Positions 46,562-53,435 of a stretch of DNA of 64,000 nt are shown here, piece after piece. The notes below the pieces were generated by a model that made no database searches, was not told the DNA's origin, and saw nothing but the letters and a program-made list of their open reading frames with translations. The DNA is from Candidatus Micrarchaeota archaeon (GTDB lineage Archaea > Micrarchaeota > Micrarchaeia > Anstonellales > Bilamarchaeaceae), in assembly GCA_014727975.1 (NCBI GenBank), contig WJMK01000017.1, forward strand, positions 3,926 through 67,925, given 5' to 3'. The first letter of the stretch is position 1. Every line of letters starts with the position of its first letter. The translations under genes were made by a program, and so were the position numbers.

Positions 46562-46599
46562 ATCCTATTCAGCAATCCTGTGAAAGCTTCTTCTAAAGG

Positions 46600-46609
46600 T
46601 TTATTAATA
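46600..46609 (+). promoter_or_regulatory. TATA-like box for the T4SS-like operon
   Basis: TTTATTAATA is preceded by AAAGG (BRE-like) and centred about 34 nt upstream of ATG 46639. Confidence 0.5.
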
Positions 46610-46638
46610 TTATCTTCTTTATCTTACCGGGTTTTGCC

Positions 46639-46884
46639 ATGGCATATATAGAAACACTTCTCTCAAGCTGGCTAGAGACACTGAAGTCAGCAGGCACCAT
46701 GATTTCAATGCTTTTGATAATACTCGGTGGGCTCCTTTATGGGATTGCGCAACTGCAGCCAGGGGAGACCAGGGGAAAATGGCAAACCACAGGAATTGCA
46801 ATCGTTGTTGGAGGGATACTTATCGCCGCTATCCTTGGTGCAGCGGACCTGATACAGGAAGTCTCCTCAAACCTCTTCAAGTGA
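46639..46884 (+). CDS. small two-helix membrane protein, VirB2/TrbC/CedA1-like pilin candidate
   Basis: 81 aa. Two hydrophobic helices (MISMLLIILGGLLYGIAQL and GIAIVVGGILIAAILGAADLI) are joined by a short charged loop (QPGETRGKWQTT). First gene of the tightly packed module. Confidence 0.5.
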   Translation: MAYIETLLSSWLETLKSAGTMISMLLIILGGLLYGIAQLQPGETRGKWQTTGIAIVVGGILIAAILGAADLIQEVSSNLFK

Positions 46885-46888
46885 AACA

Positions 46889-47830
46889 ATGGCTCTGGAT
46901 CTTACAATAGCCGGGACGATAGTTGCATTGTCTATAGTGCTATCCGGGCTCTTAATCGGAATCGGAAGGGCAATTGGCTCCCACAAGGTGGAGTTCTTTG
47001 GAAGAGAGGAGCTAATCCAGGCAGTCATAAATGCCGCACTTGTAGGGGCGTATGCGACAATTACCCTCACCGCAACAGAAATCAGCAGGGAGATTGCAGG
47101 GGACGGGATTTGTGTCGAAGGGGACGCAATTGAAAACCTTCAATGTGTGTATGGGGGGCTTTCTGACAACATCTACATCCTCCTTGTAGAAAGCCTACAC
47201 CTCCACCAGACTGTTGCATACTACCAGTCCCTTGTGCTGAATTTTTCAACCTTTACCATCCAGCCCCTTGCTTACCTCTCTTCAGTTTCTATAATCCTGG
47301 AAGCCCAGGTCCTTGCCCTCCAGCAGCTCCTGCTGATTTCTGAAATCCATGTCCAGCTCCTTGCATTTTTCGGGCCCCAGCTGCTCACCTTCTTTTTCCC
47401 TCTTGGGCTGATATTCCGTGCATTTTTTTCAACCCGCAAGCTTGGAGGGTTCCTTATCGCCCTCTCAATAGGGCTTTACCTTCTCTACCCCTCCCTGATA
47501 ATGGTTTTCCCCCAGCCGGAGCTCAATGGAACAACAGCCGGCCTTGAATCCATGAACAACAACACAAACTACACGATTACCCCTATACTTGACCTAAATG
47601 ACAATTATGCAATTGCAGGAAAGCTGGACAACATGACCAACACAACCGCGGGCGCAGATTTTACAGGGGACGTAACCACCTCGCTCCAGCAGCTCACCTC
47701 TGCAACATCCTCACTTACAATCTTCATACTCATAGCCCCATTATTTTCAATAATCCTGACCTTGATATTTATAAAGGAAGTAACTGATATATTTGGAGGA
47801 GAGTTCTTCTATTCGGTGGGAATGTTATGA
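46889..47830 (+). CDS. polytopic membrane protein (about 6 TM), VirB6/TrbL/CedA-like candidate
   Basis: 313 aa with 5-6 hydrophobic helices plus a sequon-rich loop (NGTT...NNNTNYT...NMTNTT). A 4-nt gap upstream and a 4-nt overlap downstream. Confidence 0.5.
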   Translation: MALDLTIAGTIVALSIVLSGLLIGIGRAIGSHKVEFFGREELIQAVINAALVGAYATITLTATEISREIAGDGICVEGDAIENLQCVYGGLSDNIYILLVESLHLHQTVAYYQSLVLNFSTFTIQPLAYLSSVSIILEAQVLALQQLLLISEIHVQLLAFFGPQLLTFFFPLGLIFRAFFSTRKLGGFLIALSIGLYLLYPSLIMVFPQPELNGTTAGLESMNNNTNYTITPILDLNDNYAIAGKLDNMTNTTAGADFTGDVTTSLQQLTSATSSLTIFILIAPLFSIILTLIFIKEVTDIFGGEFFYSVGML

Positions 47831-48606
47831 TAGCAAACAGAGTCGTCACATTTGCCGCACTTGGCGGGGGCGTGCTTGCCCTTCTCTTAGCCTTTGTAAG
47901 CGGCCAGGTATTGTTCGCATTGATTGCGTCATTGTTTTTTGCGCTTTCAATCATAATCTGGAAGTATGGATATCTCCTCATCCCGTTTTTCACTTCTGCC
48001 ACAAACATAATTGAAGTCCGGGGCAGCTACAACATTCCCCCTACAAGGGATTGCATCACCAAGAGGACAGGAGGGGGGTTCTACGCGTCCAAATTCCTTG
48101 AAATAAAGTTTTATGAAAGCATGATAGATAAAAGGGAAAACGACCGCTCAAGCATGATAGAGTCTTTTGAAAAGGCCCTGGCATCCCTCAAGAACGTGCT
48201 GAAGATTTCACTCATGGTTTCTTCTGTGGACCTTACCAAGCACATTGACAAGATAAAGGCCAAGAGAAGCGCTGCAGAAAGCAAGAGACGCCGTCTTCCG
48301 CCAAACAGCGAAGAGCTTGTCCGCATAGACAGGGAGATTGCAATGTGGAACCGCCTTCTTGAGAGAATAACCCATGGTGACCGCTCCCTTGAAGTCACTG
48401 CATTTGCCCAGACAACCGCGTTTGGGGTCACAAGGGAAGAAGCAATCTCCAAGGTCAGGAGGCAGGCAAAGGAAGCCCGCACAATTATCTCCTCTACCTT
48501 AGGGGCGGATGTAACTGAGCTCCTTGACACAGACATGATAAAATGCTTTGAGTGGAGCTACTTCATCCCTGCGGACACAGAACAGATGCGGGATGAGGTG
48601 TTCTGA
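47827..48606 (+). CDS. membrane protein with 2 N-terminal TMs plus a soluble domain, VirB3/VirB4 N-domain-like candidate
   Basis: TMs FAALGGGVLALLLAFVSG and LFALIASLFFALSIIIW, followed by a charged helical domain of about 190 aa. Its stop overlaps the ATPase start (TGATG). Confidence 0.45.
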   Translation: MIANRVVTFAALGGGVLALLLAFVSGQVLFALIASLFFALSIIIWKYGYLLIPFFTSATNIIEVRGSYNIPPTRDCITKRTGGGFYASKFLEIKFYESMIDKRENDRSSMIESFEKALASLKNVLKISLMVSSVDLTKHIDKIKAKRSAAESKRRRLPPNSEELVRIDREIAMWNRLLERITHGDRSLEVTAFAQTTAFGVTREEAISKVRRQAKEARTIISSTLGADVTELLDTDMIKCFEWSYFIPADTEQMRDEVF

Positions 48607-50048
48607 TGGACCTGAACGAACACCTTACAAGCCAGATGGCCCAGCGCCTTTTTGTAACACACCCTCCTGAGCCCAGACCCTCACTCCTCCTCTCCAGCCC
48701 CACAGAAGGGATATATGTTGGCAAGACCCGCTGGCTCAATGTCCCGGTTTTCTGGGACTACCACAAGCTCATCAACTCCCATATTGCAATTGTAGGAATT
48801 ACAGGAGCAGGGAAATCATATCTTGTAAAGACTTTTCTCACAAGGGCAGCCCTAGTCTGGAACTCAAATGCCATCATCCTGGACTGGACAGGAGAATACA
48901 ATAAATGGGTCCGCCAGGCAGGAGGGAGGGTAATCACCTTAGGAAGGGAGTCCCTCAACCTCCTTGACCTTGCTGGCCTCAAGGTTGCAGAGCGAATAAA
49001 GCAGATAATGTCTGCATTTGAAATCCTCCTGGACCTCCACAATTTCCCTGATGAGCGCTATGAGATAGAGGAGGCACTTGAAGAAGTTTATGAAAAGGTA
49101 AAGAAGCCTACGCTTGCAGACCTTGTTTCTGTTCTTGAAAAGAAAAAGAAAAAGCATTCAGCGCGCCTCCTCAAGACATTTCTTGTTGAAGGAAGTGATT
49201 TCTTTTCCAGGGAATCCACCCTTGAGCTTGAGAAGCTTGCTGAATCCGGCCTGGTATGCATAGACCTCCATTCCCTCCCAACAGAAGAGATGCGCTCCCT
49301 TACTGGGCTCACAATCCTCCAGTTCCTAAAGGAGAAGATGCGGAGGGAGGAGCTAAAGGAAGCAAAAGGAATCAAGCTTTTCGTGGTTGTTGATGAGGCA
49401 TGGAAGATTGCAAGCGATGAAAGGAGCGATGTAATAACCATCGTCCGTGAAGGCCGAAAATACAACTTCAGCCTGATTGTCGCATCCCAGAACCCTACAG
49501 ACATGCACAAGACCATCATATCGAACGTTGGCACAATGTTCGTCCTCCGCCTCGTCCTCCGCGAGTATAAGGACTACATCCGAAATTCACTGAACTATTC
49601 ACAATACATAGATGATGCAATATCCGGTTTTGGGGTAGGGGACGCTGCAGTAAACATGATTTTTTCAGAGCGCTCTGAACGCGCTCACACATTCCTTCTT
49701 GACAAGATAGACGGGGAAGAGCCTCTCTTTGTCTATACAATAAAGGTGGGCAAAATGACAATTGAAGTAGAAAGAGAACAATTTTCAAGAATGCTTTTTG
49801 AGCTTGGGCTTACAGATGAGCAGATAAACCTCGTGAAAGTTGAGTTTGAGCGGGGGGACGGAGTCCTCGAGGCTTCAGCAATCGTCACTCTTCTGGAAAA
49901 ATTCGGATATTCCCATACTTCCATAATGACATTCCTCCGTCAGCTGGGTGTTGAAGAGAAATTCATCGTGGAGGTATTCTCGCTTACAAGAAGGAGGCGT
50001 GCAACAAAAGGGGTTGTCGACCTTAAGCTGAAAGAAGGTGAGGAGTAA
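48606..50048 (+). CDS. VirB4/TrbE/HerA-superfamily (DUF87-type) ATPase
   Basis: Walker A IAIVGITGAGKSY. Walker B LFVVVDEAWKI. A REGRKYNFSLIVASQNPTDM motif typical of VirB4/HerA-FtsK-class ATPases. An extra C-terminal helical domain of about 100 aa. Confidence 0.8.
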   Translation: MDLNEHLTSQMAQRLFVTHPPEPRPSLLLSSPTEGIYVGKTRWLNVPVFWDYHKLINSHIAIVGITGAGKSYLVKTFLTRAALVWNSNAIILDWTGEYNKWVRQAGGRVITLGRESLNLLDLAGLKVAERIKQIMSAFEILLDLHNFPDERYEIEEALEEVYEKVKKPTLADLVSVLEKKKKKHSARLLKTFLVEGSDFFSRESTLELEKLAESGLVCIDLHSLPTEEMRSLTGLTILQFLKEKMRREELKEAKGIKLFVVVDEAWKIASDERSDVITIVREGRKYNFSLIVASQNPTDMHKTIISNVGTMFVLRLVLREYKDYIRNSLNYSQYIDDAISGFGVGDAAVNMIFSERSERAHTFLLDKIDGEEPLFVYTIKVGKMTIEVEREQFSRMLFELGLTDEQINLVKVEFERGDGVLEASAIVTLLEKFGYSHTSIMTFLRQLGVEEKFIVEVFSLTRRRRATKGVVDLKLKEGEE

Positions 50049-50746
50049 TGGAGGAAATAATAAAGATAAAGGCAAAACGGACCAAACCCCTAAAGGAGCT
50101 AACCCCCCTGCTCGGCTCACTTGGATTCAGCAAGATGAGCTACACAAAAGATACTCTTACGGTTGAAAAAGTAGAATCAGAGGACATCTCCGGAAAGCCA
50201 TACCTCTTCTACAAGATTGAACTTTCCCCTAAATCAATACTGATACGGTACCTCCTTCCTTCCCCTGAGAGGAGGATTGCACGCAGCCTCCAGATGGGGC
50301 TTCTCTCCCTCAATGTTTTCCGGATAATATCAAGCCACTACGATGTCAAGGTTTCTTCAGTTTACCCCTTCTATTATGCTCTGCTGAATTCGCTTTCCGA
50401 TGCACTTGAAAAGGAAAAGCTGGAGGCCATGTCAGAGCTAAATGCGCTGAAGACCAGGCACGTTTCCCTTGACAAGAAGTACAAGGACCTTGTGCGCTCA
50501 AGCGAGCAGAATGCGCGCATCCTTGTGGAGGCAGAGCGCAAAAAAGAGGAGCTTGAGGAAAAGCTCAAAAAGATGGAAGGCATCAACGACGAAGTCCTCC
50601 AGGAGCGCCTCTTTGAATGGATAAGGACTCATGACGGAGAGATTAACACATACGAGTTTGCGAGGATAAACTCCACCCCTGTAGGCAGGGTTGAAGAAGG
50701 CCTAAACCACCTGATAAAAAACGGCTATATAAAGCGGAGGTCATAG
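50048..50746 (+). CDS. coiled-coil protein with C-terminal winged-helix-like domain
   Basis: A central heptad-rich segment (EKEKLEAMSELNALKTRHVSLDKKYKDLV...EELEEKLKKMEG), then LFEWIRTHDGEINTYEFARINSTPVGRVEEGLNHLIKNGYIKR. The start overlaps the ATPase stop (TAATG). Confidence 0.45.
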   Translation: MEEIIKIKAKRTKPLKELTPLLGSLGFSKMSYTKDTLTVEKVESEDISGKPYLFYKIELSPKSILIRYLLPSPERRIARSLQMGLLSLNVFRIISSHYDVKVSSVYPFYYALLNSLSDALEKEKLEAMSELNALKTRHVSLDKKYKDLVRSSEQNARILVEAERKKEELEEKLKKMEGINDEVLQERLFEWIRTHDGEINTYEFARINSTPVGRVEEGLNHLIKNGYIKRRS

Positions 50747-50750
50747 GAGC

Positions 50751-50903
50751 ATGCCCCCAAAGCCCAAAAAAAAGGAAGTTTACCATTTCTCCATTGTGAA
50801 GAATTTCCCAAAATACAAATCATTTGAAATACTGAAGGAGCCGGAAGCGGATTTTCTTTCTGCCTTTGTCAGGACTCTTTCACAATTATTTAAGGGTGAT
50901 TGA
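50751..50903 (+). CDS. possible small protein (50 aa), not in the ORF track
   Basis: Hand translation gives MPPKPKKKEVYHFSIVKNFPKYKSFEILKEPEADFLSAFVRTLSQLFKGD. It exactly fills the gap between the module and purD (4 nt and 1 nt spacers). There is no homology evidence. Confidence 0.25.
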   Translation: MPPKPKKKEVYHFSIVKNFPKYKSFEILKEPEADFLSAFVRTLSQLFKGD

Positions 50904-50904
50904 A

Positions 50905-52200
50905 ATGAAGGTTTTGCTTGTAGGTAGCGGAGCAAGGGAGCATATAATCGCGGAGCAGCTTTCCAGGAGTTCTGAACTGTATTCCATAATGCCAAAGAAG
51001 CATCCGGGGATTGCCTCCCTTTCTGAAGAATTTCTTGTGCATGACCCTGCAGATTCCCCAGTTGTCGGACAATGGGCCAAATCAAAGGGCGTGGATGTTG
51101 CTTTTGTAAGCCCGGATGGGCTACTTGCCCAGGGGGTGACAGACACATTTGCAGACCTGGGCATACCCTGTGCATCCCCTCTCAAAAAAGCCGCAAGGAT
51201 TGAATGGGACAAGGGATATGCACGCAGTCTCATGCGCGCAAAGGAAATCCCTGGATGCCCTGCCATTAAGGTTGCCTCCAGCATAGACGAAGCAAAACAG
51301 GCAATTTCCGAAATCGGGGAAGTTGCAGTAAAGCCAATAGGCCTTACAGGGGGCAAGGGAGTAAAGATTGCAGGGGAGCACCTTAAGAGCGAGCAGGATG
51401 TGCTCAGCTATTGTGCGGAGCTGTTAGAGAAAGACGGAAGCGTGCTCATAGAAGAAAAGCTTGATGGGGAGGAATTTACCCTCCAGGCATTTTGTGATGG
51501 GGAAAGGCTTGCCCTTATGCCCCCTGTCCAGGACCACAAGCGTGCGTTTGAAAATGACGATGGCCCCAACACAGGAGGCATGGGCAGTTATTCCACAGGC
51601 AAGCTCCTCCCGTTCCTTGAGCAGAAAGACCTTGACTCCGCAAAGGAAATAATGGAGAGGACACTGGCAGAGATGAAAAATGACGGCAACCCATTTACCG
51701 GAATCCTCTATGGGCAGTTCATGCTTACAAAGGATGGGATAAAAGTAATTGAGTTCAACGCAAGGTTCGGGGACCCAGAAGCAATGAATGTTCTTTCCCT
51801 CCTCAAAACCCAGCTTTCTGAAGTTTTCCTTTCCATGGCAGAAGGCAAGCTCATTCCTGTGAGTTTTGCCAGCAATTGCACGGTTGTCAAATACCTTGTT
51901 CCCGAGGGGTATCCCACAGAAGGCAAGCGGGACCAGCATGTTGCTGTGGATGAAGAGGGCCTCTGGAACTCAGGTGTGAAGCTCTATTTTGGCTCAGTGT
52001 ATGAGAAGGACGGGGCAATCTATACCACAACATCGCGCACTGCTGCCCTTGTGGGGCAGGCAGAGGACCTGGAGGAGGCCGAAAAAGCCACAGAATCCGC
52101 CACCAGGTTCATAAGCGGCCCGCTCTGGCACAGGAAGGACATAGGCACAAAAAGCCTAATAGGTCGCCGAATGGAGCACGTTAGGCGGTTGAAGGCATGA
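50905..52200 (+). CDS. purD: phosphoribosylamine--glycine ligase
   Basis: MKVLLVGSGAREHII..., ATP-grasp motifs (VKPIGLTGGKGV, EEKLDGEEFTLQAF, EFNARFGDPE). The ATG at 50905 is preferred. Confidence 0.95.
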   Translation: MKVLLVGSGAREHIIAEQLSRSSELYSIMPKKHPGIASLSEEFLVHDPADSPVVGQWAKSKGVDVAFVSPDGLLAQGVTDTFADLGIPCASPLKKAARIEWDKGYARSLMRAKEIPGCPAIKVASSIDEAKQAISEIGEVAVKPIGLTGGKGVKIAGEHLKSEQDVLSYCAELLEKDGSVLIEEKLDGEEFTLQAFCDGERLALMPPVQDHKRAFENDDGPNTGGMGSYSTGKLLPFLEQKDLDSAKEIMERTLAEMKNDGNPFTGILYGQFMLTKDGIKVIEFNARFGDPEAMNVLSLLKTQLSEVFLSMAEGKLIPVSFASNCTVVKYLVPEGYPTEGKRDQHVAVDEEGLWNSGVKLYFGSVYEKDGAIYTTTSRTAALVGQAEDLEEAEKATESATRFISGPLWHRKDIGTKSLIGRRMEHVRRLKA

Positions 52201-53435
52201 GGAACGCCCTGCTTGCATTCCTTTTTATTTTTCCTGTATTTGCATTTTCCTCCGGAAGCGCAGTTATTTCTATAGAGAAGACATGGAGCCTCCATGCAGA
52301 AGAAATGATTACGGATTTAGAGCTGAACGGGACCTTCCTTGTCAAGAACGACTACCAGGAAATTCTCCAGATGAATGTCACGGATGAAGGCGCAAGGTTT
52401 GAAGAGTCCAACGGAACGGTGAGGGTTGTGTTTAATGCAGATAAATTTTCAGGCGAAAAACAGATAACTGCATCCGCGCTTGTCCGCACCGAATATCCCC
52501 TGGAAATACGCACAAACCCCGAGTTCATCCCCAGCCCTGCAAATGCATCCGGACTAATTGAATATGATGAGCACATTTCTTCAACTTCTGAGGCAATCTC
52601 TTCAGGAAAAAAAACCGAGCTGGAGGCGGTTGTGGCTGTTGCCGACTGGGTGCATGACTATCTTTCTTATGACATGGAGTTCTGGGGCAGCCCTTCTTCT
52701 GCCAAAACGGTTTTTAATGAACCGCGAGGTGTTTGTGTTGGTTATGCCCATCTTTTCATCTCAATGCTCCGTTCTCTTGGCTTTGAAACAAGGTTTGTCT
52801 CTGGATATGCATTTGCAGAAGAATGGCAGCCACACGCCTGGGCAGAAGTAAAGATAGGAGAAAGCTGGGTTCCAGTGGACCCTACATTCAGGGAGGTTGG
52901 GGCGCTTGATGCCCGCCATCTTGCTTCCAGTTATTCATCTGACCAGAGCGGGGCGTATGACCTGCTTGTTGCAAGGGGGAACGGGTTCGATTTCAACAGC
53001 ACTGTTTCTGTGTCAACTTCTGAGAAGGAGAAGTTTGAGGAGTTAATTTTTGTACACACTGTCCTCTATGATGATGACCTCAAGGTTACGCTCTATAATC
53101 CAAGCAGCAGCTACATCACCCCGACATATGAGTTCGCAATGCCGGAATTCATCCTTACAAAAGACACACGCATCATAGTAATCCCTCCTTCCTCCTCAAA
53201 GGAGATAACCTATCGCCTGAATACAGGTGAGCTGGAGGCAGGGTATACCCACAATGTGCCCTACTACCTCTCTGTCCAGGGAACCTCTGTAGAAGGAGAG
53301 CATTCTATAATGAAGGGGAGTATTGCGGACGCGGAGCCTGAAGAGGAATATTCTGAGACCCAGCAGCATGAATCATGCCCGCTTATTGCACTTTCCCTTG
53401 CCATGGGCCTTGCAGGCCTGTTCTTAAGGAGTTAA
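52197..53435 (+). CDS. secreted transglutaminase-like (Cys-His-Asp) protein with C-terminal TM anchor
   Basis: Signal MRNALLAFLFIFPVFAFS. Core motifs: GVCVGYAHLFISMLRSLG (Cys), HAWAEV (His), VDPT (Asp). C-terminal TM LIALSLAMGLAGLFL. The ATG overlaps the purD stop. Confidence 0.8.
   Translation: MRNALLAFLFIFPVFAFSSGSAVISIEKTWSLHAEEMITDLELNGTFLVKNDYQEILQMNVTDEGARFEESNGTVRVVFNADKFSGEKQITASALVRTEYPLEIRTNPEFIPSPANASGLIEYDEHISSTSEAISSGKKTELEAVVAVADWVHDYLSYDMEFWGSPSSAKTVFNEPRGVCVGYAHLFISMLRSLGFETRFVSGYAFAEEWQPHAWAEVKIGESWVPVDPTFREVGALDARHLASSYSSDQSGAYDLLVARGNGFDFNSTVSVSTSEKEKFEELIFVHTVLYDDDLKVTLYNPSSSYITPTYEFAMPEFILTKDTRIIVIPPSSSKEITYRLNTGELEAGYTHNVPYYLSVQGTSVEGEHSIMKGSIADAEPEEEYSETQQHESCPLIALSLAMGLAGLFLRS

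Follow-up and report, generated by a model that had tools for sequence, protein, structure and literature searches.

Bacterial pilins of the VirB2, TrbC and TraA kind typically carry a leader that is cleaved by signal peptidase. Before assembly, VirB2-type pilins, as in the F and T pili, sit in the membrane with the loop inside and both termini outside. Among archaea, Ced and Ted are chromosomal, domesticated type IV secretion system (T4SS) derivatives, in which a small hairpin pilin is found along with a polytopic membrane protein and a VirB4-like ATPase. Their pilins, CedA1 (Sulfolobales, Aeropyrum; 8DFU) and TedC (Thermoproteales; 8DFT), both form pili of archaeal DNA-import systems; CedA1 is unprocessed and related to the N-terminus of CedA, and TedC has a signal peptide (PMC9905601). 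VirB2-like pilins (PF18895) are also known from the ultra-small, host-dependent Patescibacteria, where they are chromosomal, lie near virB4 and often occur in several copies (PMC12102498). Described here is a small gene, g1, of a Candidatus Micrarchaeota archaeon. It lies in a stretch of 64,000 nucleotides (contig WJMK01000017.1, positions 3,926 to 67,925), hereafter the window, and is the first of five co-directional genes with 4-nucleotide gaps or overlaps between them (g1 to g5). As judged from sequence comparison, g1 is likely to encode a leaderless pilin of the VirB2/TrbC superfamily, the small subunit of a chromosomal, T4SS-derived cassette of the Ced/Ted-like kind, which would assemble into a tube or conduit.

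The product of g1 reads MAYIETLLSSWLETLKSAGTMISMLLIILGGLLYGIAQLQPGETRGKWQTTGIAIVVGGILIAAILGAADLIQEVSSNLFK. An amphipathic N-terminal segment (residues 1-20, with one K/R and two D/E) leads into a hydrophobic stretch (residues 21-39). This is followed by the loop QPGETRGKWQTT (residues 40-51), which has two K/R and one D/E and is the sole segment with a net positive charge, and then by a Gly/Ala/Ile-rich stretch (residues 52-69) and an acidic C-tail (residues 70-81). In the AlphaFold2 model, based on a 25-sequence alignment, a helix at residues 2-37 and another at residues 42-79 are joined by a four-residue turn, with a mean predicted local distance difference test score (pLDDT) of 90.9. This antiparallel hairpin of two hydrophobic helices and a short polar loop is the layout by which VirB2/TrbC pilins are recognised. 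An earlier note on this DNA, made from the sequence alone, had described an 81-residue helical hairpin here, with an amphipathic N-terminus, a hydrophobic helix, a basic loop and a Gly/Ala/Ile-rich second helix, and had made its pilin reading depend on an antiparallel fold; the reading frame, the segment composition and the model all bear it out.

The N-terminus of g1 sets it apart from the bacterial pilins of this kind. The stop-to-stop frame around the gene has just 95 codons and no upstream in-frame start (ATG, GTG or TTG), so an N-terminal signal peptide is impossible, and the cleaved leader by which VirB2/TrbC pilins are also recognised is missing from g1. Similarly, when the N-terminus (MAYIETLLSSW) is read directly, no class III (type IV pilin/archaellin) signal peptide is seen, in agreement with the earlier note. 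A candidate TATA-like box is present about 25-40 nucleotides before the ATG and would imply a transcript with no leader or a very short one.

The family of g1 was compared with known families in both directions. When 25 members were scanned separately, PF18895 (T4SS_pilin; cut-off 26.6 bits) was the top Pfam family for 22 of them, and PF04956 (TrbC/VirB2; cut-off 27.9 bits) came second, with matches to 11. The best member reached 23.8 bits (E 4.8e-5) against PF18895, which is below the cut-off, with both helices included in the alignment (positions 5-64 in a profile of 71). Among the NCBIfam families, NF045849 (Mbov_0395 pilin-like conjugal transfer protein) came first, matched by 19 of 37 members with a best E of 4.2e-6, again below the family cut-off. 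In the reciprocal search, 37 diverse g1 sequences were made into a profile, which was compared with 1.84 billion representative proteins. It retrieved 159 proteins at E <= 1e-3, mostly of 100-170 residues, with a signal-peptide-like N-terminus and then the hairpin. In the 93 retrieved proteins that were scanned at E <= 0.01, PF18895 was found in 34 and PF04956 in 31, and any other family in two at most. Two of the retrieved proteins exceed the Pfam cut-offs themselves, namely P0105 (retrieved at E 1.9e-9; 32.2 bits for TrbC) and P0140 (retrieved at E 7.2e-6; 28.7 bits for T4SS_pilin). The small protein that heads the orthologous cassette of another Micrarchaeota family (L119) is retrieved at E 1.3e-23 and, with 27.9 bits, stands exactly at the TrbC cut-off.

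Composition and the hairpin pattern alone fail to explain these hits, because reversed decoys score far lower (median 1.6 and maximum 18.3 bits; the real hits have a median of 44 bits and never fall below 35.9). Further, a profile of the extended family had TrwL, the VirB2 pilin of R388 (8s6h_A), as its top match in the PDB, at E 0.01 and with the alignment running across both helices. The study of Patescibacteria used the same Pfam models with a threshold of i-E < 0.001 (PMC12102498), which several g1 relatives would pass. With profile hits spread over the members and reciprocal retrieval of proteins above the cut-offs, the homology of the g1 family to the VirB2/TrbC and T4SS_pilin proteins is established at the level of sequence profiles.

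The second line of evidence is the company that g1 keeps. The cassette contains an ATPase gene, g4, whose best NCBIfam matches are CedB (E 6.8e-30), the VirB4 CD1110 family (2e-26) and Mbov_0397 (NF045975; 2.3e-21), the VirB4 of a mycoplasma integrative and conjugative element (ICE); the HerA families score lower. The first three all fall short of their equivalog cut-offs and are confined to the C-terminal ATPase part of the models; with CedB, for example, g4 reaches 104 bits where 700 are required, over model positions 251-573 only. The Pfam matches are DUF87 and AAA_10, and in the PDB, HerA-like proteins and VirB4 (4ag5) are found at similar scores. Co-encoding with a VirB4-family ATPase, which is a mark of the superfamily, is seen here both in g4 itself and in the conserved gene order.

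That order was followed through related genomes. In species loci of the g1 family, g2 is directly downstream of the small gene in 29 of 72. The ATPase was seen downstream within the fetched flank in 19 of 73, and several other loci end too early to show it. In three other families of the class, the order is kept in all 12 sampled genomes, the best g1-family gene being directly upstream of g2-like, g3-like and ATPase genes, with a g5-like gene usually next. The g1 relatives in these 12 genomes are 100-184 residues long and have a hydrophobic leader with A-x-A-like ends. The same order is present on metagenomic contigs that carry P0087 (L106, L107). A further, paralogous cassette, in which the ATPase is about 50% identical, is found in some genomes of the family to which the window belongs, and it likewise starts with a pilin-like gene that bears a leader. 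Thus, the small gene is inherited along with g2 and, as a rule, the ATPase. The earlier note had held that orthologues unlinked to VirB4-like ATPases would tell against a pilin, and the linkage recurs in the loci of its own and other families, in the metagenomic relative and in the paralogous cassette.

Coordinates of the cassette and of the features on both sides of it are collected in Table 1. Upstream of g1, the opposite strand encodes a C-terminal fragment of RqcH and purF. None of VirB3, VirB5 and VirB7-11 was recognised in the cassette by the Pfam and NCBIfam scans. The type IV coupling protein (T4CP, PF02534) was searched for in the window's genome and none was found, relaxases not having been searched for.

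Table 1. Position of g1, the other cassette genes and adjoining features in the window
Feature	Coordinates	Strand	Length	Description
Candidate TATA-like box	46596..46615	+		AT-rich, aaaggtttattaatattatc; read from the sequence
g1	46639..46884	+	81 aa	VirB2/TrbC-superfamily pilin-like hairpin, leaderless; ATG to TGA
g2	46889..47830	+	313 aa	Polytopic all-alpha membrane protein; start 4 nt past g1 stop
g3	47827..48606	+	259 aa	N-terminal transmembrane segment(s) and soluble domain; stop overlaps g4 start
g4	48606..50048	+	480 aa	VirB4/CedB-like (FtsK-HerA superfamily) ATPase; NCBIfam, Pfam and PDB matches
g5	50048..50746	+	232 aa	Coiled-coil protein; C-terminal end winged-helix-like, read by eye
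Basic open reading frame	50751-50903	+	50 aa	MPPKPKKKEVYHFSIVKNFPKYKSFEILKEPEADFLSAFVRTLSQLFKGD; between g5 and purD
purD and transglutaminase-like gene	50866-53435	+	412 aa (transglutaminase-like)	PF01841 (transglutaminase-like); unbroken after the cassette

Several observations weigh against the assignment of g1 to the pilins. In a direct scan, its own protein has no match in Pfam or NCBIfam at E 0.01; with PF18895, it scores 12.3 bits (E 0.19), which is the level of noise, and PF04956 is not matched. When its own genome was scanned in six frames with PF18895, g1 scored 10.6 bits and an unrelated stretch scored higher, and hits of this model at E <= 1 occurred in 11 of 14 control genomes. 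Neither g1 nor the profile of its close family gave a sequence match to PDB chains at E <= 10. A Foldseek search of the PDB with the g1 model found nothing below E 0.68. Its top 50 matches are generic hairpins, such as the membrane hairpins of ArnC and GtrB, DgkA, ATP synthase c subunits and BAR domains, and the solved pilins 8DFT (TedC), 8DFU (CedA1) and 8EXH (VirB2) are absent from them. As for the cassette, no similarity of g2 to VirB6, TrbL, CedA or any other family was detected by Pfam, by NCBIfam (both in per-member scans) or by Foldseek. Lastly, in at least 25 species loci (L018, L022-L067), the small gene stands apart from the cassette, just after the gene of GAPDH and with RadA 0.4-4 kb (mostly 0.4-2.5 kb) downstream.

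The pilin case for g1 rests on its family, because its own protein scores at noise level. The two-helix hairpin fold carries little information and does not discriminate a pilin from other hairpins: the comparison of folds proposed in the earlier note was carried out with Foldseek and gave only generic hairpins, and it was the sequence profiles that led to the pilin families. Of the VirB2/CedA1-type pilin suggested in that note, the VirB2/TrbC part is upheld by the family profiles, but a specific likeness to CedA1 or TedC was not found, either as a PDB sequence match or within the Foldseek top 50, which is a weak test, since even between Ced and Ted no sequence similarity of the components can be recognised (PMC9905601).

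These points could also be read to mean that g1 is a generic two-transmembrane housekeeping protein, that its adjacency to the cassette is incidental and that the pilin hits reflect drift among hydrophobic hairpins. Such a protein would fit the noise-level Pfam match, the commonness of weak PF18895 hits in control genomes, the generic Foldseek hairpins and the place between GAPDH and RadA, far from the cassette. That the same order, each time with a small gene of its own, recurs in far-removed families, among metagenomic relatives and in paralogous cassettes would not be expected of it. Nor would its relatives be expected at or above Pfam cut-offs with library-wide E values of 1e-6 to 1e-9, when reversed decoys remain at or below 18 bits and two separately curated libraries (Pfam with two families and NCBIfam with one) both name pilin families first. 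A generic protein is, on this evidence, very unlikely. The genes next to GAPDH form one sequence subfamily, with the N-terminus MAxGLEV, and in all 12 genomes tested from this clade, an operon of g2, g3, ATPase, g5, purD and transglutaminase genes is found elsewhere and begins with g2. Thus, what has happened in this clade is a relocation of g1 and not an absence of the system.

The ATP synthase c subunits among the Foldseek matches (1l6t, 6fkf; TM-scores 0.35-0.57) bring up another possibility, namely that g1 is a proteolipid-like ion-conducting or rotor subunit, like ATP synthase c/K. The size is similar, and so are the hairpin fold, the Gly-rich helices and the conserved polar loop with Q-P and R. 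A conserved carboxylate within the membrane is, however, missing from helix 2 (D70 varies and is placed where the helix ends), no member is matched by Pfam ATP-synt_C, and the neighbouring genes are not ATP synthase genes. A c-subunit identity was ruled out on the missing carboxylate and Pfam match, and a role of this general kind is extremely improbable.

In the cassette, g2 takes the place that VirB6, CedA and TedA hold in their systems. The g2 protein carries an invariant R-x5-R-x2-G motif (FFSTRKLGG in the window) and an outer loop rich in sequons and Cys. Its AlphaFold2 model (pLDDT 83.8) has long helices of 35-50 residues; a Foldseek search with it found nothing below E 0.08, and no T4SS protein was among the matches. 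By hhalign, g1 and the N-terminal hairpin of g2 are aligned in register, with a probability of 10% and E 0.0032. The idea that g1 is a copy of this hairpin was dropped, as such a score is too weak.

The close association with g2 also bears on the chief alternative. It accepts that g1 is homologous to VirB2 and works with the cassette, but holds that it stays embedded in the membrane, as a channel lining or an assembly factor of g2, and never becomes an extracellular filament. The polymerisation of g1 is only inferred here, and g1 and g2 are adjacent in L061, L062, L070 and L072 though no ATPase lies within 6 kb. The weak in-register likeness of g1 to the g2 hairpin recalls that of CedA1 to the CedA N-terminus (PMC9905601), and pili are generally absent from the T4SSs of monoderm bacteria (PMC12102498). 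Yet CedA1 and TedC, the two studied archaeal relatives of this kind, both form pili (PMC9905601). Moreover, the leader-bearing relatives of g1 have external tails rich in NxS/T, which are typical of exposed archaeal surface proteins, and there are two to nine copies in many genomes, as is expected for exposed, variable pilins. We consider a purely membrane-embedded role unlikely, albeit less so than the other alternatives weighed here.

The reading preferred here is that g1 probably supplies the subunit of a tube or channel, in a secretion or DNA-transfer apparatus that has not been described before. We infer the topology of g1, its extraction by the ATPase, filament formation, lipid content, the substrate and the direction of transfer as follows. 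The protein would insert into the membrane as a hairpin with the basic loop (Q-P-x-E-x-R-G-K-W-Q) in the cytoplasm and both termini outside, because only the loop bears a net positive charge (positive-inside rule); VirB2-type pilins have the same topology before assembly. A membrane platform of g2 and the bitopic g3, driven by the VirB4/CedB-like ATPase g4, would then extract g1 subunits from the bilayer. These would be stacked, probably with membrane lipid, into a tubular filament or a short conduit, the lumen of which may be lined by the conserved basic loop. Through such a conduit, DNA or other macromolecules could pass from cell to cell, one of the two being the small symbiont.

It was also observed that the leader-bearing g1 relatives (L110-L121) have C-terminal tails rich in Asn-x-Ser/Thr, for example SNLTNATV and NATANASV, while g1 has no sequon. 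The tails suggest N-glycosylation of an exposed C-terminus and are consistent with an external C-terminus. Separately, four metagenomic proteins, P0055 (1071 residues), P0057 (632), P0071 (342) and P0086 (278), are tandem fusions of two to seven pilin-like hairpin units. Cys residues flank every unit in P0057 and P0071, and some of the fusion proteins have their units behind a large extracellular N-terminal domain. Such proteins may represent polyprotein precursors or arrays of pilins in covalent linkage.

How the locus stands to each of the described systems can now be set out. The TrbC/VirB2 pilins (PF04956; TrwL of R388, 8s6h; VirB2 of the Agrobacterium T-pilus, 8EXH) share with g1 a hydrophobic two-helix hairpin, about 70 residues long, whose loop is short, polar and basic. 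They, too, are encoded with a VirB4-family ATPase, and members of the g1 family reach or exceed their Pfam cut-off. Unlike them, g1 has no leader peptide and no sign of cyclisation or C-terminal processing, its host is a single-membrane archaeon, and its own score is far below the cut-off. The Patescibacteria pilins resemble g1 in the features named at the outset, but their hosts are bacteria and they have Sec leaders. Leaders are also found in g1 relatives of other Micrarchaeota families, though not in those of the window's own taxonomic order; g2, g3 and g5 have no recognised counterparts in the bacterial system.

With Ced and Ted, the g1 cassette has in common the chromosomal location, the domesticated state and the set of small hairpin pilin, polytopic membrane protein and VirB4-like ATPase. 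CedA1 is unprocessed like the leaderless g1, and the signal peptide of TedC has its parallel in the leader-bearing relatives from other families. The g1 cassette differs in having g3 and g5 in addition and in extending to purD and the transglutaminase-like gene, and in that its host is a DPANN symbiont and not a free-living crenarchaeon. In the mycoplasma ICE, lastly, the pilin-like protein (NF045849) is matched by the g1 family, and the cognate VirB4 (NF045975) is among the matches of g4. Mycoplasmas are wall-less with a single membrane, which may be counted as a likeness to the setting of g1. Their protein, however, belongs to a bacterial mobile element, whereas the g1 cassette is conserved and chromosomal.

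The family to which g1 belongs is widespread in its phylum and tightly constrained. Its homologues in the protein collection number 54, with lengths of 81-85 residues, and those with names come from metagenome-assembled genomes of Candidatus Micrarchaeota. A genome scan gave 73 species loci, every one of them in Micrarchaeota. Of 201 genomes drawn from all over the phylum, 171 contain the family at a threshold of E <= 1e-5, and among the 152 high-quality ones 129 do so. The window's own genome has one copy. Pairwise dN/dS (the ratio of nonsynonymous to synonymous substitution rates) between g1 and its relatives is 0.012-0.068. P41, R45, G46, G58 and I65 are invariant over 37 diverse members, and the loop motif Q-P-x-E/D-x-R-G-K-W-Q is nearly so across the family. 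Thus, g1 is a real gene under strong purifying selection, and its cassette is close to universal in the Micrarchaeota (DPANN).

DPANN archaea, Micrarchaeota among them, live in attachment to other archaea. In a cassette that is nearly universal and under strong constraint, and that combines a pilin of the conjugation type with a VirB4-like motor, there is now a concrete candidate for the exchange of material between the two cells. It would also extend the domesticated archaeal T4SS derivatives beyond the crenarchaeal Ced and Ted, in parallel to the recent report for the ultra-small Patescibacteria. A full-text literature search, which included a recent comparative paper on Micrarchaeota and a T4SS review, found no description of the cassette or of a VirB2-like pilin in Micrarchaeota; the nearest literature concerns VirB4-like domains in nanohaloarchaeal giant proteins (PMC10266531).

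A wider and more tentative proposal, which is possible but for the present rather doubtful, is that of a phylum-wide, T4SS-derived apparatus without a coupling protein, in which the VirB2-like subunit physically connects the DPANN cell with its archaeal host by building the conduit between them. Such an apparatus would correspond, in archaea, to the T4SS of Patescibacteria and would add a third lineage to Ced and Ted, and might serve in the uptake of DNA, lipids or other macromolecules that the reduced symbiont is unable to make. The occurrence of leader-bearing and leaderless forms in one family, as with TedC and CedA1, amounts to a natural experiment on how pilins enter the membrane, and direct tests on the 81-residue protein are within reach in existing co-cultures of Micrarchaeota.

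Some variations on the cassette were also noted. On an archaeal contig (L108:9260-16365; GCA_027318185.1), the TrbC-positive small gene of P0105 is followed by an unrelated 244-residue membrane protein and then by six consecutive genes for proteins of 367-459 residues. All six were matched in tblastn by g2-type queries, and the three that were read share the R-x5-R-x2-G-G…Y-P motif region; no ATPase is present in the 8 kb shown. In L008 and L017, about 1.7 kb separates g3 from the ATPase, and in L092 (3499-5886), the insert is an open reading frame of 795 residues; overall, such inserts measure 1.7-2.4 kb. Besides the cassette, all Micrarchaeota genomes checked, that of the window among them (contig C5:35588-37084, L122), hold another operon, whose paralogous ATPase shows about 46% identity. 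It has g3-like and g5-like genes and a protein of about 850 residues, along with a protein of about 160 residues and two transmembrane segments in L096 and L097, and has no g1- or g2-like gene. The operon on contig C5, with its 851-residue protein, was considered as a possible carrier of a g1-like gene and rejected, as a hidden Markov model search found no g1-like domain.

Downstream of g5, the 50-residue open reading frame has counterparts of 45-92 residues in the corresponding position in further orders of Micrarchaeota (L091, L092, L094, L099, L100), with the common motif Y/F-P-x-x-R/K-S/K-F/Y-I/V-V-K-x-P-hK-K-S-F-K-D, and is probably a real small gene. The purD and transglutaminase-like genes follow the cassette in distant Micrarchaeota orders as well (within L089-L100), and the product of the latter could assist the apparatus by modifying the envelope.

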